Source: Promethearchaeota archaeon | GTDB lineage: Archaea > Asgardarchaeota > Lokiarchaeia > Sigyniarchaeales > SOKP01 | NCBI GenBank assembly: GCA_019894975.1 | Contig: JAGXNO010000073.1 | Span: forward strand, 1 to 12,241 | DNA length: 12,241 nt | Reading direction: 5' to 3' | Shown: in pieces, positions 1 to 12,026 of the stretch | How positions within the stretch are numbered: position 1 is the first letter of the stretch | How the letters are laid out: each line of letters begins with the position of its first letter | Translations under genes and position numbers: made by a program | The notes under the pieces: generated by a model | What the model saw: only the letters and a program-made list of their open reading frames with translations | Told to the model about the DNA's origin: nothing | The model's database searches: none

Positions 1-627
1 GTCGTAAGGTCTTCCAATAAAACCGTTCTCATCGCCTTCAGAATTAAGGCAGCTCCAGATAAAAGTAATAGTTTCTTGTGGATTTATTAAATCCAATCTA
101 CCTAAAATATCCAAAGATAAGACAGCATAACAATGGATTTCAAGCATCGAGCTTAAAGGATAATACTTTTGAGGAAAGTTCATGTTTAGATACCGGTGCG
201 TATACTCGTCTGTAAATATCTGAAATTCTTCAGAATAATGATCTAAGATATAATCTACTATTCTAGTTCGGTTTATGCAATCTAACTTGCCGAGTGCTTC
301 GAAGATATACAGTCCATAGTATGTCGCCTGTAAGGAAGACTCGTAAATCTGTGGGAAATATCCTAAATTGTCGTAATCGTTGAGTTTTCTTTCGAAAATT
401 GCTTCAATGTCATCTCCATTGTCAATAGACGAGATTTTTGGGTTTAATTTGCTGATTTCATCAGGATTTACCTCAATGTATCCTCGATCGATAGCATCAA
501 AATTATTCTCAATCAATGAAAAGTGTGGCGTCGAAAAGGTGCCAATGAAAATAACTACGATAATAATTGTTTCTATTGTTTTTTCTTTAATTTTAAAATT
601 AGCTTGTGGAGTGGTTAGTTGCATCAT
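1..627 (-). CDS. Secreted/membrane-anchored protein with prenyltransferase/squalene-oxidase-like (alpha/alpha toroid) repeats; continues beyond the left window edge
   Basis: Manual translation: ATG at 627-625 (second ATG 624-622), in-frame TAA upstream at 654-652, open to position 1. Reads MMQLTTPQANFKIKEKTIETIIIVVIFIGTFSTPHF...GYFPQIYESSLQATYYGLYIFEALGKLD...HCYAVLSLDILGRLDLINPQETITFIWSCLNSEGDENGFIGRPYD. It has a hydrophobic N-terminal segment and two 'T/C-Y-x-x-L-x-x-x-x-x-LG-K/R-LD' units resembling prenyltransferase-type repeats. Absent from the ORF track because the stop lies outside the window. Confidence 0.8.
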   Translation of the reverse strand, partial: MMQLTTPQANFKIKEKTIETIIIVVIFIGTFSTPHFSLIENNFDAIDRGYIEVNPDEISKLNPKISSIDNGDDIEAIFERKLNDYDNLGYFPQIYESSLQATYYGLYIFEALGKLDCINRTRIVDYILDHYSEEFQIFTDEYTHRYLNMNFPQKYYPLSSMLEIHCYAVLSLDILGRLDLINPQETITFIWSCLNSEGDENGFIGRPYD

Positions 628-1048: not shown

Positions 1049-2908
1049 TTATGGGACTTGTCCACCATCTATGATAGTCCAACTATAATTATTTATAATA
1101 CTCGCTCTTGCAGTTGTAGCGGCACCTGTGCTATATTGTGAATTGCCTCCATGAAAAGTTACACCATTATGTAAAACTAATTGAGACCAACCGATTAACA
1201 AACTATCATAATTAGTTGTTGATAAAGTTGCCAAAGAAAACATATCCCACATAGTCATAACGTTTGAAACATCCCAATTACCAATGTTTTGGTTAAAGGA
1301 AGTTGCCCCCATGAACATACCCGACATAGAGATTACACTCAACACGTTCCAATTGCTAATATTTCGGTTAAAAGATCTTGCCTCATTGAACGTACCCCAC
1401 ATAGATAAAACATTTGATACATCCCAGCTATTGATGGGCTGGTTGAAAGAAAATGCCTGAGCGAACATGACAGCCATGTCTGTCACGCTCGAAACATCCC
1501 AGCTATCTATGGGCTGGTTAAAGGAAGTTGCAGATTGGAACATAGCGGTCATGTCTGTCACGCTCGAAACATCCCAGCTATTGATGGGCTGGTTGAATGA
1601 AGAAGCAGCGGCGAACATTCTCTCCATGTCTGTCACGCTCGAGACATTCCAACTATCGATGGGATGGTTAAAGGATGAAGCACCTAAAAACTTATTCTTC
1701 ATGGTTGTTACGCTCGAGACATTCCAGCTATTTATGGATTGGTCAAAGGAGGAAGCAGAACTGAACATACTCGCCGTGGTTGTCACGCTCGAGACATCCC
1801 AGCTATCTATGGGTTGGTTAAAGGATGAAGCACCTTGGAACATATTTGCCATGGTTGTCACGCTCGAGATGTCCCAGCTATCTATGGGTTGGTTAAAGGA
1901 TGAAGCATAACTAAACATACTCGTCATTATTGTCACGCTCGAGACATCCCAGTTATTGATGGACTGGTTAAAGGATGAAGCATAACTAAACATACTCGTC
2001 ATTGTTGTCACGCTCGAGACATCCCAGCTATCGATGGGCTGGTTAAAGGAAGTTGCACCATAGAACATGTAGCTCAAATTTATCACATTTGACAGATCAA
2101 AATTGTTCATATTTCCGCTACTTCCCAAATTTTCGCATCCCCTAAATGTATTATTTAAAGTAGTTATTCCTGTTAAATTTAATTTATCAGTTGCAGTAAG
2201 ATTTAGATTAGTACATCCATAAAAATTACTTCCAAAATTCCCTAATTGTAATGAACCCCAATCTTTAATCTCAAGTAGTTTTAATCTATCTCCATTATTA
2301 TTATCATTTTTATGAAACCTCCAACCAAGGATTGTTCCATTTATTGAAATATCATACACACCTTCTGAAGTATATGTATGATTTACTTCTGATTGATTCC
2401 AGCTAATAATCGTATCGATATTTCCATCACCCCAATCAATGGTAAAATTATAGGTTCCAGTTGATTCCAATGGTAATGCAACTTGATTATTAGAACTCGA
2501 ACTTGAACTTGCTAATGTAGTATTCCATACTGAGTTAAAAAATGTATCTATGGAAAAACTGACTGATGTATTTCCAATATTTCCTGCTGAATCATTAGCC
2601 CATACATGTATTGTATTTGAACCATTTCTAAATTTAATAAATTGTGCTGAATTACAAATGACATCTACACCATTCCAGTTGTACCATATTGTATCTATTC
2701 TTATGTTGTCAGTTGCATTAATTTCCAGTAATTGCGTAGTTGCATGATATGTTGTATTAGAAAGGCTGATTATTTGCACTTTTGGGTTTGTTGTATCAAT
2801 TTCTTCGGGTTTTTCAGAAGGACTTATTAGGAAAATAATTACTGTTATAAGAGAACTTACTAATATGACTGATATCAATAAAACTAAGAAATTTTTTTTT
2901 TTTTCCAT
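1049..2908 (-). CDS. BspA-family (DUF285) leucine-rich-repeat surface protein with N-terminal TM anchor, Ig-like and PKD-like domains
   Basis: 619 aa. KKK + hydrophobic helix (aa ~7-28); Ig-like segment ([10 protein letters not shown]...[13 protein letters not shown]); PKD-like FTIDWGDG...[15 protein letters not shown]; 25-aa repeats WDVSSVTxMxxMFxxAxSFNQPIxS; typical C-cap NYDSLLIGW...WTIIDGG. Confidence 0.93.
1277..2101 (-). repeat. Coding tandem array of 11 x 75-bp units (plus a partial 12th) encoding DUF285 repeats
   Basis: Exact 75-nt periodicity; the central units share near-identical DNA (tgtcacgctcgagacatcccagcta...ggttaaaggatgaagca). Confidence 0.95.
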
Positions 2909-3290: not shown

Positions 3291-6200
3291 ATGGTTGAAA
3301 TTGAAGTCAAAAAAATTGAAAGAGATGAAATTATTGTATGTGGAGCTTGTAATAATGCAATTCCAAAAGATTTTCTCGAAAGAAGTGTAGGGCGAGTAAA
3401 AAATCTCTATTGCCAATATTGTGGCGTATCCTTAAACTTGGATTACGATCTAAAAATTAATAATGAAGATGGTGAAAACCATAATAATACTCTTTATACA
3501 CAAGAAGAATCAAGTTTGACTAATATTCAACAGAATAGCCAAGAAAGTGATTTTTCTTTGAGTTACACAAATATAAGGAGCTCTCTACGAAGTTATATTT
3601 TTCAGCTGATTTATCAGTTGTTAAAAAGCACTCCTTTCACCCTTAAAAAAATCCAGAATAAAAAAGAATTGAAAACTTCGCATATAAATATTATACTCAA
3701 AAAAATTTGGAACGAATTAAAAGACTTGAATCCAAATAATTTAGCTAATCAAGAATTGGTAAGCTCAAAACGAAGAATTAAGAATTACTTTGAAGAATTT
3801 CAATCATCGCTACGACCCTACAATAATTTTCGGAAGAAGAATTTTGCTCTTTTTGCAGAAAACATTGAATTCGTTTTCGGGTTAATTTTAGGAGATTATG
3901 AATTCTCAAACCTTACAACCTCTAAAAAACGGATTGTTCTCGATTTAAAAAAGAGGTTTGGATTTAAATCAGATACAGCAACAACGAATTCATTTACTTA
4001 TACCATCTCATTAATCCTAAGTAAAAAGATTCGCAGTATTCCTACTCAATATCACATAACAGAAGGGAATAATAATAAATTAGCGTTAGATGAAATAATT
4101 GGTTATGTAATTGATTATTTAGTCACTAATAAGGTTAAAATATTTGATTTAAGTGAATTTAACAACTCCAAAAAAAAAAAGTTTCATAGAACACTGAAGA
4201 TTTTAATCTATAATTTAAAATCGGACTGGATTTATCGCAAGAGTTTTGAAGATCACATTTATAAATTAACCATAATCGTTAATTCCTTAATAAACAATAT
4301 TGAATATTCGTCCAGCCTTACCGGGTTTGAACGGCTTATTAGCCAAGGATTAAAGCAGTCAGCTCTCTTTGAAAAAGACCAAGATTTCTCTCCTTATTTT
4401 AAACTTAACTTAACTCTAATTTTAAGCCGAATTATATACATAAAAATAAAAAATTCCCCGGGTATAACCAAATTAAACTCTCAACCCGTAAATTTGAGCA
4501 TTACGGAAGAAATTGAAATTAGAAATTCAATTTTAGATGAAATTACAGCAGGTAAAAAAATCAACTCTCAATTATTGAAGAAGTTTTATATGTTCTCGCT
4601 AGAAAAATTTCAAACCTATTATAAAAAATTACAATTAAAATTATCTTCGGATTTGATATATGTGGAGAGCTTTCGTAATTACCTTAGTGACCTTGTAAAA
4701 CTCGTGTTTACTATCGTACATTCAATTTCAAAAAAATCACAACTCACTAAACTCGAACTTGCTGTAATAAAAGATTTAGCGAATTATAATTTTGAATGGT
4801 TCAATAAAAAAGCTCTTGAGAGATATAATGAGAACGAGGATTTGACTACAAAGTCTATGGAATTATTTGAAAAATCTCAAGATGAAAAAGTTTTAATGAA
4901 CCAAATAAGTAAATCTGATGAAATTGTTAGAATTTTTAAATTTAAACCAATAGTTCTAGTAAAATTAATTGAGCAACTAGGAAGAAATTTAAATGTTAGA
5001 CTTGACATTAAAGATGAAATCTACCTGCAGAAAAAAAAGAAGTATACTTATTCTTCAAGTTATTCTGATGGAGATATAGAATTTTGGATCGAATTATATA
5101 AATTAAAGTATTATGGTGGATCTTGGCCGGCTGTTTTTGAATTTATTATTGAATGCAATAACCGTTTTAATCTAAAAATTGATACTCCACATTATTATAA
5201 CGGAATGATACCTATCGCGAAAACATATTTTAAGCAGAATAGCTTGAATTATGAAGAATTTATAATAAAGCATGGAATTTATAAGAGTAAGCAACCATCT
5301 ACTGATGAGATTGTTCTCGAATGGATAAAAATATATCAAAATCGAGATTTAGGGGGATCAATCTCTGCTATTATGAACTATTTAGAAAATCATCAAGGCT
5401 ATACCTTTGGAGAGACAACAATAAGGCGTCATATAAGGAAATTTTTTATGAATGGAAAATATGGAAATTATTTTAGTGAGGATTTAACTTATGATGAATG
5501 GAAAACAAGATATAAAAGAAATTTTTTTAGAGAAGATATGCCTCTTGACCCTAAAACCCAATCACATGAATACATCTTATTATATAATGAAAAAAAAAAT
5601 CAATACAAACGAGTATTTATTAAAGATCTTGAAAATCCAGAATTATTAGAAAATATGGATGAGTTACAGATTCTTGGAATTTCAAACAATTTACAACCAA
5701 AAAAAGTGAATTTTAGTCATTTTGAAAAAAAAGATCTTCAGGAATCCTTAGAAATTGTTTGTAGCCATGGATCAGTAATAATTTCTCCAGAGCAGTATCT
5801 TTACACCATAGATGATGACAGCAACATAATTGAAATTAAGGGACGCGATCTAAAAGTTGGAACGCCAATATTGATGCCAAGAATTTTAAAAATCGATTCA
5901 AATGATGAACCTTTAGATTTAATAAATTGTGGGAAGTTAATAACTAGCAATACTGCTCAATACATCGAGCAATTTGGTAAGAAAGCATATCGATTTATTA
6001 AAAAAAATGCAAATTTAGGAGCGATAATTGGTCAATATGCAGCTGAGGGGACGATGCCATCGAGACATCAACCCGGAACAACAATTTCAGTTAGCGTGGA
6101 TAAAGATTATATTCAAAAGCTTCAAAAAATAATCAAAGAAGTATTTGGGCTAGAGTTTCAAATATTTGCACGAAGAGTTACGGAGTGCAAAAATTGTGGA

Positions 6201-7064
6201 TCTAAAACAATTGAAAAGGGGAATCAAAATATATGTCCTAAATGTGAAGATGGTACCTATAATGAATGTTATGAATTAAGGACAAAAACAAAGTTAGCAA
6301 AAACTATATTTACTGAGGGTTTAGGGTTAAAACATACTTACTCGTATTTAAAAGAAATTCCATCGTTTTTGTATAATTCGCCAACGGATTGTGAGAAAAG
6401 CTTTATATTAAGTTATTTTAAAGGTGATGGATCGGAACTGGATTATCGTAATAAAGGAGGAACCTTTGAACTCAATTTTGTAACCACTTCTAGACGACTA
6501 GTATTCGGTTTGAATTTGCTTATGAAGAAATTAGGAGTTATTATGAGCGTTAGGGCACATAAACCTTCTAATAGGCCGAACTCGAAAAAACTCTATCAGA
6601 TGAGTATTCGGGGTTCTTCTAATTTTGAATTATTAAAACATCATTTCGAAAATTTACCTGAAATTGACTATACTACTAGCGATATTAGAACTTCTGTAAA
6701 TAATCAAATTCTTATGAGAAAATTAAATTTAGAACTTCAAAAGATGTATGGCATTTCATTGAGAGAATTAAGTAATAGGGGAATTATCCCTAAAAATGCA
6801 CAACATATTGCAACTCAATTAAAAAGAAAAACAAACTTGTCAGAAGTGCTCTTATTAAAAACTCTTGATGGGTTAAGAAATGAAAAACTTCTGACTCCCT
6901 TAGTTAAAAAATTGGAGCAAGTCTTTCGAAAAAACACTTTTACCAGAATAAAGAAAATTATATCTTCTAAAACACCTAATAACTCGTATAATATTTCAGT
7001 AGACGGAATCGGATATTGTTCTGGAACTGCTTTTGTATATGTAAAATCTGAAGAAAAAGAATAA
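3291..7064 (+). CDS. Multidomain protein: Zn ribbon + 3 helical repeats + 2 HTH-like repeats + C-terminal degenerate intein (HINT) with LAGLIDADG endonuclease domain
   Basis: 1257 aa, intact. CGAC..CQYC (aa 17-44); HINT-N motifs (LEIVCSHGSVIISPEQYLYT, EIKGRDLKVGTPILMPR); LAGLIDADG motifs LGAIIGQYAAEG and FILSYFKGDG; block H FVTTSRRLVFGLNLLMKKLGV; HINT-C FTRIKKI...SYNISV...VYVKS. Confidence 0.9.
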   Translation: MVEIEVKKIERDEIIVCGACNNAIPKDFLERSVGRVKNLYCQYCGVSLNLDYDLKINNEDGENHNNTLYTQEESSLTNIQQNSQESDFSLSYTNIRSSLRSYIFQLIYQLLKSTPFTLKKIQNKKELKTSHINIILKKIWNELKDLNPNNLANQELVSSKRRIKNYFEEFQSSLRPYNNFRKKNFALFAENIEFVFGLILGDYEFSNLTTSKKRIVLDLKKRFGFKSDTATTNSFTYTISLILSKKIRSIPTQYHITEGNNNKLALDEIIGYVIDYLVTNKVKIFDLSEFNNSKKKKFHRTLKILIYNLKSDWIYRKSFEDHIYKLTIIVNSLINNIEYSSSLTGFERLISQGLKQSALFEKDQDFSPYFKLNLTLILSRIIYIKIKNSPGITKLNSQPVNLSITEEIEIRNSILDEITAGKKINSQLLKKFYMFSLEKFQTYYKKLQLKLSSDLIYVESFRNYLSDLVKLVFTIVHSISKKSQLTKLELAVIKDLANYNFEWFNKKALERYNENEDLTTKSMELFEKSQDEKVLMNQISKSDEIVRIFKFKPIVLVKLIEQLGRNLNVRLDIKDEIYLQKKKKYTYSSSYSDGDIEFWIELYKLKYYGGSWPAVFEFIIECNNRFNLKIDTPHYYNGMIPIAKTYFKQNSLNYEEFIIKHGIYKSKQPSTDEIVLEWIKIYQNRDLGGSISAIMNYLENHQGYTFGETTIRRHIRKFFMNGKYGNYFSEDLTYDEWKTRYKRNFFREDMPLDPKTQSHEYILLYNEKKNQYKRVFIKDLENPELLENMDELQILGISNNLQPKKVNFSHFEKKDLQESLEIVCSHGSVIISPEQYLYTIDDDSNIIEIKGRDLKVGTPILMPRILKIDSNDEPLDLINCGKLITSNTAQYIEQFGKKAYRFIKKNANLGAIIGQYAAEGTMPSRHQPGTTISVSVDKDYIQKLQKIIKEVFGLEFQIFARRVTECKNCGSKTIEKGNQNICPKCEDGTYNECYELRTKTKLAKTIFTEGLGLKHTYSYLKEIPSFLYNSPTDCEKSFILSYFKGDGSELDYRNKGGTFELNFVTTSRRLVFGLNLLMKKLGVIMSVRAHKPSNRPNSKKLYQMSIRGSSNFELLKHHFENLPEIDYTTSDIRTSVNNQILMRKLNLELQKMYGISLRELSNRGIIPKNAQHIATQLKRKTNLSEVLLLKTLDGLRNEKLLTPLVKKLEQVFRKNTFTRIKKIISSKTPNNSYNISVDGIGYCSGTAFVYVKSEEKE
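5541..7049 (+). other. Intein-derived module (HINT-N / LAGLIDADG / HINT-C), predicted non-splicing
   Basis: Intein blocks occur in the canonical order A, B, C, E, H, F, G. Block A lacks a Cys/Ser nucleophile (PLDPKT), block B TxxH is SPEQ, block F Asp is Asn, the terminal His-Asn is Lys-Ser, and only EEKE* follows. Confidence 0.8.
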
Positions 7065-7074
7065 AGAGAGCTAA

Positions 7075-7152
7075 TTATCTAATAACTAAAGCAGGTTTTC
7101 CCGGTAGTGCTTGGCTTGCTTTCTGATCGGTGGAATTCTTTTCAATCAAAAC
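7075..7152 (-). pseudogene. leuS: Displaced, diverged 3'-terminal fragment of leuS (last 25 codons + TAA)
   Basis: Translates [25 protein letters not shown] versus [25 protein letters not shown] at 9231-9308. Ungapped, 60/78 nt and 17/25 aa identical, same strand, same stop position. Confidence 0.93.
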
Positions 7153-7160
7153 TGCTCCTC

Positions 7161-9083
7161 TTAAATCTTTAGATCATACTGGATTTTTTCATTTCTTAGA
7201 CGAAATTGGTTAATAGCGTCATAAAATGGATTTAATTTCATTTCAAATGCGAATTTTTCATTCCTTCTCTCAGGATCCTCTTCTAACTTTTCTTTAATAG
7301 GCAAAATCAAATATTCTTCAGTAAAAAATTTTTTAAATGTTTGCCTAAATTTTTTTTTATTTGGGTAAGGGTAATCCTTTCCACTAACAATCATAGGATA
7401 AGCTTTCATTAAGTTATCTTTAAAATTCCTCAGTGAGAAATCGATTAGAATTGATTCATAACCTTTAATGTTTAAATTTTTATCTTCTGACTCTATGAGT
7501 TCATTGGATTCATTTTTGGACTTTTTTAATTCAGTTAATAATAATTGTCTCTGACTTTCTATTAATGTAGCACCAAGAACATTTATCCACTTATCGTATA
7601 AATCAAGAATTACGTCAGGTTCAAAATTCTCAGTTACAAAATCAGGATAGAAAAAAGCTCCATGATCTCCAATTTTTCCTTTTTTCTCACTATATTTTTG
7701 TGGTCTTTCATAGTCTAGGAAAAAGAAATAAATTCGATCTTTTAATGGTCTGTTGATAGTCAGTGCTTGTATCGTTTTATCAATACCTCCTATGTTTTCA
7801 ACAGATATTGGAAATAATAACCATTTGTTATCAAAATAATATTTCATAAGTGTTTTCTCAGTTCCACCTTCCGTATATAAAACAAAGGGAGTAGAGGCAA
7901 ATAAGCCAAAATCAGCTAGAACCGATCCTCTAAACTCTATAGCCTCTGACTCATTATTCAAATAAAAATAAGGTTGCTCTTTTTCTTTATTTTTAGGCCA
8001 AATTATCAAATTAAATTCAAATAATTCCCATGTAATTCTCGTTAGGTTTCTCAATAAAGCTAAAATGTTTACTGAAATATTTAAATTTCCATAAAGTTTA
8101 CTTAGTTTATTTTTGCGAATCACATCTAATAAGTTTTCCAAGCTTTCAAGACCGTTTATTTTATTTTTCGAAGAATGAATAAAGTGGTGATATATCCGGC
8201 TATACATTTTCTTTAAAATATCCTGTTCTCCTTGCGTTAGAAAATTCCTCTTATCGTTTAATTTTTCATTAGTCCAGTTTTTAAATTTAGCAAGTACTTC
8301 TTCTCTTTCATTTTTATCAAATTGAGATTTAGTATTTAGTTGCGGATAAATATTTACGCCACTTGGTGTTATAAAATACTCCCCAAAAAGCATAAGTGAA
8401 TCCAATTTTATCCATACTTTAAGGAAATCAAAAAACAGCCAATGAGAACCAGTCAAATGCCGATAAAAATTATCAGAGACTTTTTTATATCTAATAGCCT
8501 GCTTTAAATCTTTTTTATTTTTTCTTATCTGCTGGCGTTTTTGCCTAAAAGTTCTTTCTTTAGAGTTTTTGACATTTTTATTGTACATTTCGAATCTTCT
8601 CTTAATTTTAGTCTCTCTCCATTTTTTCTCTTCATTTTCTATTCTCCTTAGCTGTTTTTTCCTCTTTTTTCCTTCAATATTAATATTGATATATTTTTTT
8701 TGCAAATAGTAATAAAACTTGCTTTCCTTGCTATAATATTTCTTAAAACTATCCCAATACAATATGAATTGAAAAAATTGAAAAGGATGGTAAAATTTAA
8801 TGAAGTCTTTCTCTTTTGGTTCATTTGGAAAAAAACTGAATCTTCCTCTTCTATCTAGTTCCTGTCCGTATTCCGAATCTGCTTTTGTAATATAAATTGG
8901 TTGAAACAAATTATTCTCTTCTAGAAAATCTAAAAGATGATAACATTCAGTAATTTCACCTTTATATTGCACATAACCAAGTTCCTCGGCCCAATTAAAT
9001 AATCCTTTTCTTGAAAGTAGATTCCGATGTAAAAATGGTGAGTAACTTTCCCATATATCAAAAACAGTTGTCGATTCTATCAT
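7161..9083 (-). CDS. Hypothetical protein with C-terminal TOPRIM-like (OLD-family-type) nuclease domain
   Basis: 640 aa. FVLYTEGGTEKTLM...ISVENIGG...FFFLDYE...TENF matches the TOPRIM pattern hhhhEGxxE...hhxxGG...hhhDxD/E. A basic coiled-coil-like stretch lies near aa 135-200. No Walker A motif was seen. Confidence 0.75.
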   Translation of the reverse strand: MIESTTVFDIWESYSPFLHRNLLSRKGLFNWAEELGYVQYKGEITECYHLLDFLEENNLFQPIYITKADSEYGQELDRRGRFSFFPNEPKEKDFIKFYHPFQFFQFILYWDSFKKYYSKESKFYYYLQKKYININIEGKKRKKQLRRIENEEKKWRETKIKRRFEMYNKNVKNSKERTFRQKRQQIRKNKKDLKQAIRYKKVSDNFYRHLTGSHWLFFDFLKVWIKLDSLMLFGEYFITPSGVNIYPQLNTKSQFDKNEREEVLAKFKNWTNEKLNDKRNFLTQGEQDILKKMYSRIYHHFIHSSKNKINGLESLENLLDVIRKNKLSKLYGNLNISVNILALLRNLTRITWELFEFNLIIWPKNKEKEQPYFYLNNESEAIEFRGSVLADFGLFASTPFVLYTEGGTEKTLMKYYFDNKWLLFPISVENIGGIDKTIQALTINRPLKDRIYFFFLDYERPQKYSEKKGKIGDHGAFFYPDFVTENFEPDVILDLYDKWINVLGATLIESQRQLLLTELKKSKNESNELIESEDKNLNIKGYESILIDFSLRNFKDNLMKAYPMIVSGKDYPYPNKKKFRQTFKKFFTEEYLILPIKEKLEEDPERRNEKFAFEMKLNPFYDAINQFRLRNEKIQYDLKI

Positions 9084-9230: not shown

Positions 9231-12026
9231 TTATCCTATTATTAAAGCTGGTTTTCCAGGTAGTGCTTGAATTGCTTTCTTTTCATTGGATTCTTTTTCA
9301 AATAATACCGTAACCTTACAATCGAATCTCTTCTCAACGATTGAGGCGATATCTTCAAAAAACTGATATTCTTCGCTGGCTGAAAGAATAACATTTGAGT
9401 ATTTTCCAATGTTTTTCAACACTTTTTTTATTGTTTGAACCACGAATTTACTATGTTTTTTATATTCATCGTGTTCCATGATTTCTTTCGTAATGATGCC
9501 TTGATTTGTGGTTTTTTCAATTAACGATAAGAGATCTGTGTAGAACTTAAATTTCCATTCGTCAGCTATGATAATTGTAATTTCGTTCAGTTTGTCAGTT
9601 TTAGTTGCTTGCTTAATGTTATGAATATCTTCTATTATGGTATTCAAGAGATTCCTTTTAAATTCGTTTTCCCTCGTTAAAATATTGTCGTTGTAGGATG
9701 GCCAGGGTGCTATAGTAACAAATCCTTCTTTTCCAAGTATCTCCCAAAGCTCTTCTGTGATATGCGGAGCAATTGGATGAAAAAGTAATATTAATTTTTC
9801 GATACACTCATTAAAAATATCGTTTTGTCCGCCGCCTTCTTTATATTTTCTGAGCTCTGAAGTAAATTGGATTATATGATTAATAACATCTCGTAAGGCA
9901 ACTTTATCGAAACTTTCGGAAACGGTTTTAATAGTTTTATGCAAGTTATAGAGAATTAACTGATCGCTTATAGAATGCTTTTCCCGGACAGGTTTAATTG
10001 GTTCTAATAGGAGGTAAAAAATATTCTTAATAAATTTATAAGCAAAACCAATCCCTTCGTCAGACCATTCCAAACCGGATTCGGGACTAGCTCCAAAAAG
10101 AATAAAAAATCTTGAGGCATCTGCTCCATATTTATTCATCAACCCAATTGGATCCACCGTATTACCTAGACTTTTGCTCATCTTAACGCTTTTTAATATA
10201 TATTTAGTTCCACATCTTTTACAAGTTTCGTTCTGCATTTCAGCTTTCATAGCAAAAGTTTCACAATTCGAACAGTAAGGGTGGGCTTTATTGACCATTC
10301 CTTGAGTTAATAATCGTTGAAATGGTTCATCAAATTTGTGCAGTCCAAGATCTCGAGCAACTCGGGTAAAGAAACGTGCGTACATTAAATGAAGAATGGC
10401 ATGTTCGATTCCTCCTGCATAGAAATCAACATTCATCCAATAATCTGCTATTTCTTTTTTGTACGGTAAATTTTTCTCATTCGGATCGCAATACCTGAAG
10501 AAATACCATGAACTATCTACGAATGTGTCCATAGTATCTGTTTCCCTTTTTGCTTGTTTCCCACATTTTGGACAAGGGACATTAACATAAGTCTCACTCG
10601 TTTTTAAAGGATTTCCTCTTCCCGTAAAGGTAACATCTTTTGGTAACTCCACAGGTAAATCATCGAAAGGAACGGGTACGATACCACAAGTATCACAATA
10701 GATAATTGGTATTGGGCACCCCCAATAGCGTTGTCGGGAAATTAGCCAATCTCTTAGTTTGTAGTTTACAGTTTCTTGTCCCACATCTATTGAAGAAAGT
10801 TTTTTAGATATAGCGTTTATCGCGGATCGGTTTTCCATACCATCAAACTCATTTGAGTTCACTAAAGTTCCATCACCTTCATAGGCTCGGATCATTTTTT
10901 CAGCATTTAATTCGTAATCAAATGGTTGAATAACAACTTTTATTGGGATATCGAATTTCTTGGCAAATTCAAAATCCCGTTGGTCGTGTCCAGGGACTGC
11001 CATAACGGCTCCCGCACCATATTCGTAAATGACAAAATTACCAATATATATAGGGATCTCCTCTTTAGTTAGAGGGTTAATCGCATGTTTTCCAATAAAT
11101 ATGCCTTTCTTCTCAACTTCTATGTCTGTTCTTTGAAATTTATTCTGTCTAATAGTTTCCGTATAAAGGTTCTGAAAATCAGATTCATATTTGGTCTTTT
11201 CTACCCATTTCTTAACCCAAGGATGCTCGGGGGCAAATACCATAAATGTGACTCCATACAATGTATCTGGTCGAGTAGTAAAAATATCAATGGTTCTTTT
11301 TTCCCCAACAATTGGAAATTTTATTATAGTTCCCTCTGATCTTCCAATCCAATTACGCTGCATCGTTTTCACTTTTTCTGGCCAATCAACCGTATCTAAA
11401 CCGTCCAAAAGTTCTTCGGCGTAATCTCGAATTTTTAAAAGCCACTGGGTTAAAAATCGTTGTTCTACTTCAGAACTGCAACGCCAACATTTACCGCTTT
11501 GAACTTGCTCGTTAGCTAGCACAGTTACGCATTTTGGGCACCAATTCACGTAACTTTCTTGTCTATAAGCCAAACCTTTCTCGTACATTTTTAAGAAAAA
11601 CCATTGATCCCACTTGTAATATTTAGGGTCATGAGAATAGACCATACGGGTCCAATCATATGAGAGTCCTATACGTTTTTGTTGTTCCTGAATTGATTTC
11701 ATATTAAGGTTTGTCCACTCTTCAGGATCCACTCCATGATCAATTGCCGCGTTTTCAGCAGGTAGTCCATAGCTATCGTAACCCATTGGGTATAAAACAT
11801 TAAACCCTTTCATCCTTTTAAATCTTGCAAACGAATCTCCTATTGAATAATTACGAAGGTGTCCAATATGCAAATCAGAGCTTGGATAAGGATACATCTC
11901 TAATACGTAATATTTTTCTTTTCCACCTTTGCTTAGATCTTCTTTGACTTCGAAAATCTTCTCTTTTTCCCAAATTTCTTGCCATTTTTTCTCGATTTTT
12001 TGAAAATCGTATTCAATATTAGTCAT
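9231..12026 (-). CDS. leuS: Leucyl-tRNA synthetase (bacterial-type catalytic core, archaeal-type C-terminal domain)
   Basis: 931 aa. [13 protein letters not shown] (HIGH at 11859-11870), [21 protein letters not shown] and [13 protein letters not shown] editing motifs, [41 protein letters not shown] (10170-10184), C-terminal [10 protein letters not shown]. Confidence 0.98.

Follow-up and report, generated by a model that had tools for sequence, protein, structure and literature searches.

A non-splicing, intein-derived LAGLIDADG protein linked to leuS in Asgard archaea is a candidate WHO-like homing nuclease

We analysed a 12,241-nucleotide stretch of DNA assigned to a Promethearchaeota archaeon (contig JAGXNO010000073.1 of assembly GCA_019894975.1; hereafter the window), which is the complete 12.2-kb contig and has a low G+C content (~31%). 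The window encodes a 1257-residue protein, P0001, whose C-terminal part (the C-module) is, by its sequence, an intein derivative without exteins that is unable to splice. Our results suggest that residues ~533-1257 are, with fair probability, a selfish homing nuclease aimed at ~codons 533-545 of the leucyl-tRNA synthetase gene leuS, in a manner resembling the WHO elements of yeasts. A sister clade of such pseudo-inteins lies next to nrdD, where it would use a site that is still occupied elsewhere by a related true intein.

The resemblance of P0001 to inteins is far beyond chance. In Pfam, LAGLIDADG_3 (PF14528) was matched above its cut-off (E 1.6e-7), and Intein_splicing slightly below it (E 1.2e-7; 32.1 bits, with a cut-off of 35.8 bits). 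The AlphaFold model of residues 540-1257 has a predicted local distance difference test score (pLDDT) of 82.5. Both VIA and Foldseek find in residues 757-1253 of this model a Hint fold that is split around an endonuclease domain, as in solved inteins (Foldseek E 9e-24 and a template modelling score, TM, of 0.74 to the TliVMA intein; VIA Z 31.2 to PI-PkoII, 2cw7, and Z 30.8 to TliVMA, 7qss, with 395-408 residues aligned). An earlier sequence-only reading of this DNA had proposed a complete intein scaffold in an intact open reading frame with its splicing residues replaced; the profile matches and the structural match (Z 31) agree with it, and every residue and coordinate that it named is correct.

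The structural alignment and the alignment to a real intein both place intein position 1 at Lys755, where the Cys, Ser or Thr nucleophile is missing. The absence of a nucleophile had been recognized, although position 1 had been taken as Pro751 of PLDPKT (residues 751-756, 5541-5558); the segment ..PLDPK.QS.. is kept across orthologues. The TxxH of block B is replaced by SPEQ (residues 832-835, 5784-5795), and in the leuS-linked clade this block is mostly (S/T)P(D/E)Q, with His changed to Gln in every member. Asn1234 (6990-6992) replaces the block F Asp, and Lys-Ser (residues 1252-1253, 7044-7049) replaces the terminal His-Asn, a change that is invariant in 12/12 aligned leuS-clade orthologues. 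The protein then ends in EEKE-stop, a tail of four residues. As had been noticed, there is no C-extein, and stand-alone family forms of 750 aa occur.

The catalytic acids, in turn, were found retained, as the sequence-only reading had it: Glu919 of LAGLIDADG motif 1 (6045-6047, in ..QYAAEG..) and Asp1046 of motif 2 (6426-6428, in ..FKGDGS..). The former is kept in 21/21 aligned sequences. The latter is kept in 20/20 pseudo-inteins, and P0038, the real intein, is the one sequence without it; P0040 and P0041 have Ala in place of the Gly that follows the second acid. A helical region of ~215 aa (residues 533-750) always travels with the intein-like part. It contains two helix-turn-helix (HTH)-like units, ..DIEFWIELYK..GGSW.. 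and ..VLEWIKIYQ..GGSI..GETTIRRHI.., and residues 540-745 are presumed to bind DNA. For residues 533-750, Pfam gave no match and a PDB-sequence profile search gave one weak, irrelevant match (E 0.012).

About 20 proteins have residues ~533-1257 in common, at 51-92% identity, and the replaced splicing residues are conserved across leuS-clade orthologues over this same range. Pairwise ratios of non-synonymous to synonymous substitution (dN/dS) are 0.14-0.30 and extend to saturating dS, which indicates purifying selection, and the LAGLIDADG acids and ~170 further positions are invariant across the family. Since the orthologues have the replaced residues in common and are under purifying selection, P0001 is no product of recent truncation or misassembly. 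These two explanations were considered and rejected: the identical 1257-aa protein is present on three independent contigs from separate metagenomes, and all orthologues are without splicing residues. Neither normal-intein orthologues nor a dN/dS near 1, either of which would have spoken against the sequence-only reading, was found. The family tree comprises 21 sequences; remote inteins matched only in fragments and so are not in it.

The distribution of the C-module is patchy. Of the 101 genomes of the order that were searched, 13 had a match; only ~9 of these 13 belong to the family, the weakest being ordinary inteins. Within the genus, 4/28 genomes have a match, and close copies are found in another genus. 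Stop-containing or shortened copies exist beside leuS (G065) and beside nrdD (G041). The most divergent leuS-clade member (L006, G040:C185; 49% identity) has an internal TAA in its genome copy; rather than facing leuS tail-to-tail, it precedes leuS on the same strand.

Nine contexts on independent contigs place the C-module gene tail-to-tail with leuS, sometimes with a gap of only 1 bp (the window, L004, L005, L015, L016, L069, L070, L071 and the P0007 contig). The upstream flank of the C-module gene is different in each of them, and the pseudo-intein is the sole gene common to all nine. The cargo beside it varies (MT-A70, HD/HATPase, PycTM). Among the gene products adjoining the pseudo-intein in the examined contigs, no integrase or recombinase family is listed; a DDE transposase gene lies ~8.5 kb from the pseudo-intein in L015. 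The window itself is laid out as follows.

1-627, minus strand: prenyltransferase-like gene fragment.
1049-2908, minus strand: DUF285 (BspA-like repeat) surface protein with a signal-anchor-like N-terminus.
3291..7064, plus strand: P0001, whole open reading frame, 1257 aa, chimeric, with an N-module fused to the intein-derived C-module.
3339..3425, plus strand: CxxC...CxxC zinc ribbon at the N-terminus of P0001, residues 17-45 (read from the sequence; weak Zn-ribbon Pfam matches in relatives).
3552..4799, plus strand: N-module, three all-helical repeats of ~135-145 aa each, residues 88-503 (AlphaFold2 model).
4827..4907, plus strand: linker or fusion junction from N-module to C-module, ~residues 513-539, unique (homology ends here).
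4908..5525, plus strand: conserved helical region of the C-module, residues 540-745, with two similar HTH-like units (alignment and AlphaFold2 helices).
5553..6005, plus strand: N-terminal half of the Hint fold, residues 755-905, with Lys at position 1 and SPEQ in block B.
6006..6665, plus strand: double-motif LAGLIDADG endonuclease domain, residues 906-1125 (Pfam LAGLIDADG_3; VIA Z 15 to I-DmoI).
6186-6254, plus strand: clade-specific CxxC...CxxC zinc-ribbon insert within the LAGLIDADG domain.
6666..7049, plus strand: helical region, residues 1126-1212, and C-terminal Hint strands, residues 1213-1253.
7081..7167, minus strand: relic of an old leuS tail (tblastn; ~29 terminal codons, with 62% identity to the present tail).
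7161..9083, minus strand: P0002, a 640-aa gene without family match, a later insertion.
9231..12026, minus strand: leuS, encoding leucyl-tRNA synthetase (931 aa); host gene of the element (Pfam; synteny in nine contexts).
10392..10430, minus strand: leuS codons 533-545, the proposed recognition or recombination site, here in the element-linked variant form.

The relic at 7081-7167 lies between the stop codon of the nuclease gene and P0002, and the same relic is present in L071 and L004. Because these 29 codons of a leuS tail adjoin the nuclease gene, that gene must once have abutted leuS directly; and because the old tail precedes P0002, P0002 came later, together with a substitute leuS tail, and moved the nuclease gene away from leuS. 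In L005, L016, L015, L069 and L070, no P0002 separates the nuclease gene from leuS. Relics of leuS on the far side of the element were found in three contigs, two of them related: L069 (1-1125, residues 542-915), L070 (51-425, residues 543-666) and L071 (2318-2452, residues 886-930). Across 29 element-free genomes, a leuS relic within 1.5 kb downstream of leuS was found in only one (G063).

The P0002 protein is lysine-rich. Its gene separates the relic tail from leuS in L071 and the P0007 contig as well as in the window. A homologue with 79% DNA identity is found in L016 on the other side of leuS, adjoining DUF3800 and GIY-YIG genes, and P0002 is itself mobile. Pfam, PHROGs and PADLOC gave no match for P0002, and neither PHROGs nor PADLOC matched P0001.

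The two parts of leuS were then placed in separate trees. The 5' part rejects monophyly of the six element-bearing genes (approximately unbiased test, p-AU 7.5e-7), and its tree requires at least four changes. On the 3' part, the element-linked sequences fall into two clades of their own, both well supported; the test does not reject their union in one clade (p 0.395). In L069, the 5' part and the relic group with native leuS of one genus (g1), with 97 and 99 support in the Shimodaira-Hasegawa-like approximate likelihood ratio test (SH-aLRT), and the working 3' part is barred both from this native group (p 2.7e-4) and from its own relic (p 3e-4). Between residues 524 and 537, L069 changes from the native to the element-linked type. 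On the 5' part, the test of L069 with L070 is not significant (p 0.235), and L015 with the window group is only marginally rejected (p 0.037).

The boundary of the relics at codon 542/543 sits in a motif of the catalytic core of leuS. This motif is VDQYIGGIEHA(V/I)M in 27/29 element-free alleles and VD(F/L/Q)Y(V/A)GGIEH(A/S)I(L/M) in 8/8 element-linked ones, the last position being L in seven of the eight and M in L015. All eight element-linked alleles use an ATC codon at Ile540.

The C-module gene of the window is a recombination mosaic (4900-7064), with a 5' part nearest to L005. Its identity to L071 and L004 is 99-100% near leuS and falls to 82-91% further off, as expected for conversion tracts that start near leuS.

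The assembly of the window (G000) contains two full leuS genes. The second one, at C98:141071-143851 (L076), is of the native genus type and has the VDQYIGG motif. The 5' part of the window leuS groups with another genus (g4), and the contamination of the bin is 8.55%. Since the C98 gene is of native type and the window leuS groups with g4 in its 5' part, the window contig is probably mis-binned, rather than one cell having two leuS genes.

The sister clade offers a second view of the same family. The nrdD-adjacent pseudo-inteins are 31-39% identical to P0001, keep the block B His, and in three members end in Asn; P0035, P0037 and P0036-like forms lie tail-to-tail with an intact, intein-free nrdD. 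P0038, by contrast, is a real intein inside NrdD, with Ser1, TNSH and a C-terminal ..AHN followed by Ser, inserted between PAE and that Ser. It is 44-47% identical to the nrdD-adjacent clade, with which it groups, and 31-34% to the leuS clade. P0038 keeps its splicing residues and has lost the second LAGLIDADG acid (GKKS), which makes it the mirror image of the free-standing forms.

The nrdD alleles beside a pseudo-intein have ..EQAA.. exactly at the insertion site of P0038; 25 other nrdD alleles read otherwise, ..ES(S/T)(S/A).. (two of them with a variant replacing Ser). In G063, a stop-riddled 3' fragment of nrdD begins 4 codons past the intein site and abuts the pseudo-intein, and an intact nrdD lies 11 kb upstream. 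No nrdD relic was found within ~8-10 kb of the pseudo-intein in G003 and G050. Since both the allele substitutions and the boundary of the relic fall at the homing site of the true intein, the nuclease lineage is tied to this nrdD site. And since the nrdD clade appears to use the true-intein site, the pseudo-intein family probably began as an escaped nrdD intein. It is tempting to speculate that Asgard inteins left nrdD to become free-standing, WHO-type swappers of 3' ends aimed at their old site, and that one branch was then retargeted to leuS, a fuller scenario for which we see even prospects.

Isolated 3' fragments of nrdD were also seen in G116:C662, G031:C24, G050:C28, G111:C322, G009:C76 and G056:C644. 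Several of these scattered fragments begin away from the intein site, at ~residue 405-427 of the C-terminal NrdD query (498 residues), which points to a possible second site of recurrent breakage or targeting in nrdD.

The N-terminal part of P0001 has a separate history. The sequence-only reading had spoken of 750 aa of novel domains in front of the intein; these fall into two parts, a separable N-module (residues 1-512) and the helical region of the C-module (533-750). Homology to N-module relatives stops at ~residue 512, homology to C-module relatives starts at ~residues 533-546, and DNA identity to the latter starts at ~4930-4960. The N-module ends at a sharp junction (..NYNFEWFNKK), beyond which its homologues P0023-P0032 have other C-termini that look, by Pfam and motifs, LAGLIDADG, HNH-like, GIY-YIG-like, TrmB-type winged HTH, treble-clef Zn finger or helical. 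Its AlphaFold2 model is all helical (pLDDT 74.5) and matched no known fold: the best PDB score was E 0.68 in Foldseek, and VIA gave at best Z 5.6, to helical fragments. C-modules, in turn, occur alone (~750 aa) or follow one of several N-termini: a 285-aa Zn-ribbon/helical one, long acidic repeats or, as in the window, a 512-aa N-module with a Zn ribbon and three helical repeats. The N-termini of P0006 and P0037 are 59% identical.

N-module genes usually adjoin a prenyltransferase-like gene and C-module genes adjoin leuS; in G076, the two modules are separate genes on different contigs. Because of these different neighbours and the separate genes of G076, the window gene is seen to join two loci. 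The N-module is a member of a separate gene family, not a fixed partner of the C-module. Matches to this family (window 3291-4835; loci L020-L038) were found in 24/101 genomes, with up to five per genome; long forms have three repeats and short forms one.

We then propose a model for the spread of this element. The nuclease would cut element-free leuS alleles at or near codons 533-545, at the VDQYIGGIEHA motif, and the break would be repaired from an element-bearing chromosome. This repair would bring in the nuclease gene, any cargo and a cleavage-resistant 3' part of leuS that runs from ~codon 540 to the stop, while the recipient's old 3' part would be displaced outward as a relic. The sister clade would act likewise at nrdD, at the site still occupied by the related true intein. 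In the window, the module was later fused to an unrelated Zn-ribbon/helical-repeat N-module and parted from leuS by the insertion of P0002 with a new 29-codon tail.

Several observations weigh against this model. Nuclease activity, the leuS target site, allele specificity and homing by gene conversion are inferred, and homing needs an exchange of DNA between cells that, to our knowledge, is undocumented in these archaea. The leuS relics start at non-uniform positions (542/543, 886 and 902), those at 542/543 come from related contigs and may record a single event, and no far-side relic was found for the window copy. The element-linked 3' parts fall into two clades in the IQ-TREE analysis, not one, and for the window group with L059 the discordance on the 3' part is not significant (p-AU 0.28). 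The motif differences could reflect descent along with the 3' clade instead of selection for resistance: L016 retains Gln535, and two alleles that are element-free within 1.5 kb of leuS, L062 (G106) and L063 (G049), read VDFYCGG, which resembles the linked variants. These two may be former hosts or naturally resistant alleles. No true leuS intein was found among 114 remote relatives, six of which are NrdD proteins. Finally, the model leaves the recurrent N-terminal fusions unexplained.

These observations have to be set against what other explanations would make of the same locus. One possibility is that leuS and nrdD 3' ends are insertion hot spots of some other machinery, such as a P0002-type protein or an unseen recombinase, and that the pseudo-intein is long-resident cargo or a DNA-binding protein without a part in mobility. 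The newest event in the window, in which P0002 arrived with a tail of its own and without involvement of the pseudo-intein, fits this, as do the relic boundaries that vary among events and the changing cargo. However, the pseudo-intein is the only gene shared by all nine leuS contexts, and no integrase or recombinase family is listed next to it in the examined contigs; the relics, with 62% identity to the working copy, are too long and diverged for short att repeats; and the relic boundary and allele substitutions in nrdD match the homing site of the related true intein. We therefore regard the passenger explanation as unlikely.

Slightly more doubtful still is a domesticated host protein, as the sequence-only reading had proposed: an intein co-opted as a nuclease or DNA-binding regulator that serves the cell, with the N-terminal domains as its partner. 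The intact open reading frame, the conserved catalytic acids and purifying selection would all suit such a role, but purifying selection is equally expected of an active selfish nuclease. The recurrence of Zn-ribbon/helical N-modules with both pseudo-intein clades could mean a working partnership, yet N-termini are freely swapped or absent, the module is present in only a minority of genomes (13/101 in the order, 4/28 in the genus), broken or shortened copies exist, and it always adjoins the 3' end of leuS or nrdD, where relics and replaced host 3' parts are also found. Of that earlier proposal, the origin from an intein and, by its sequence, the inability to splice hold; an HO-like host function is not supported, given the patchiness, the broken copies, the leuS linkage, the relics and the discordant leuS halves, which are typical of the selfish WHO relatives of HO and not of HO. 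A third possibility, an intein fragment stranded by rearrangement that is inactive and drifting to loss, would account for the loss of every splicing residue and for the broken copies. It is nevertheless highly improbable in view of a dN/dS of 0.14-0.30 over saturating dS, the invariant acids and ~170 invariant positions, and a confident AlphaFold2 model. A selfish homing nuclease linked to leuS is the explanation we favour.

If the fuller scenario of an escape from nrdD is true, the family would be the first WHO-type element outside fungi. The nrdD intein, the nrdD-adjacent and the leuS-adjacent pseudo-inteins would form a living series for a step that has only been hypothesised for the origin of HO. 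The nrdD clade would allow this transition to be tested directly, because intein, pseudo-intein, relic boundary and substitutions coincide at one site. In the same scenario, homing nucleases would have a new accessory domain in the swappable N-module, which occurs with C-termini of LAGLIDADG-, HNH- and GIY-YIG-like type. An independent archaeal origin would make the path from intein to 3'-end swapper a general evolutionary route. The question also bears on how the essential Asgard genes leuS and nrdD gain mosaic 3' halves, on whether DNA exchange and gene conversion happen in these uncultured lineages, and on possible new long-site LAGLIDADG nucleases with natural pairs of sensitive and resistant targets.

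Among known systems, the archaeal inteins PI-PkoII (2cw7), TliVMA (7qss) and PI-PfuI (1dq3) have the same fold over ~500 residues (Z 21-31). True inteins lie in frame between exteins and keep Ser/Cys1, TxxH, His-Asn and the +1 nucleophile, whereas P0001 keeps none of these. HO of Saccharomyces is likewise a full intein scaffold without splicing, with a LAGLIDADG nuclease and an added DNA-binding domain. However, HO is domesticated, at a single conserved locus and with a host function at MAT, and the Asgard family is patchy, probably selfish and linked to its target. WhiA shares the LAGLIDADG fold and an HTH (VIA Z 15 to 8dy7_I, for the endonuclease domain only), but its catalytic acids are lost, a Hint domain is missing, and it is universal in its lineage, while P0001 has both the Hint fold and the acids.

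The free-standing homing endonucleases of T-even phages (Seg and Mob; intronless homing) are encoded beside a conserved gene that is cut in element-free genomes, and they spread with co-conversion of flanking markers, as proposed here. They are GIY-YIG or HNH enzymes without intein ancestry, and we know of no case in which they duplicate or replace the 3' part of the host gene.

The closest parallel is with WHO elements (Torulaspora/Lachancea; Coughlan et al. 2020, PMC7282813), which are extein-less, intein-like nucleases downstream of FBA1 that replace the 3' end of FBA1, leave fragments, build clusters and cause discordant FBA1 halves. WHO-type homing is the third category of homing elements after introns and inteins and has been described only from a few yeast genera (PMC7282813; 10.64898/2026.08.13.744650); the 2026 preprint of Osborne et al. 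(10.64898/2026.08.13.744650) still describes it only from budding yeasts, and our literature searches found no archaeal counterpart. Both WHO elements and the Asgard family have an intein-derived nuclease without exteins and without a functional block G, encoded directly downstream of an essential housekeeping gene whose 3' part has been replaced, with old 3' fragments left behind and discordant 5' and 3' phylogenies. In both, the presumed cleavage site varies, later insertions displace older units, and some copies are pseudogenes.

The two differ in their hosts, leuS and nrdD of archaea as opposed to FBA1 of fungi. Unlike WHO, the Asgard nuclease gene is convergent with its host gene and the elements carry unrelated cargo genes; cleavage by the Asgard nucleases is a prediction. 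Their accessory parts also differ, with N-terminal HTH-like units, an internal Zn ribbon and swappable N-modules in the Asgard family and a C-terminal GATA-like zinc finger in WHO. Such a finger is absent from P0001, which ends 4 residues past the Hint fold. The match to PI-SceI is much lower than that to archaeal inteins (VIA Z 15 compared with 31; Foldseek E 1e-8 compared with 9e-24), and the nearest relatives are archaeal inteins and the nrdD intein, not VDE/HO. Since the nearest structures are archaeal inteins and the C-terminal zinc finger is missing, the Asgard family is an analogue of independent origin, not a homologue, of the WHO/HO proteins.

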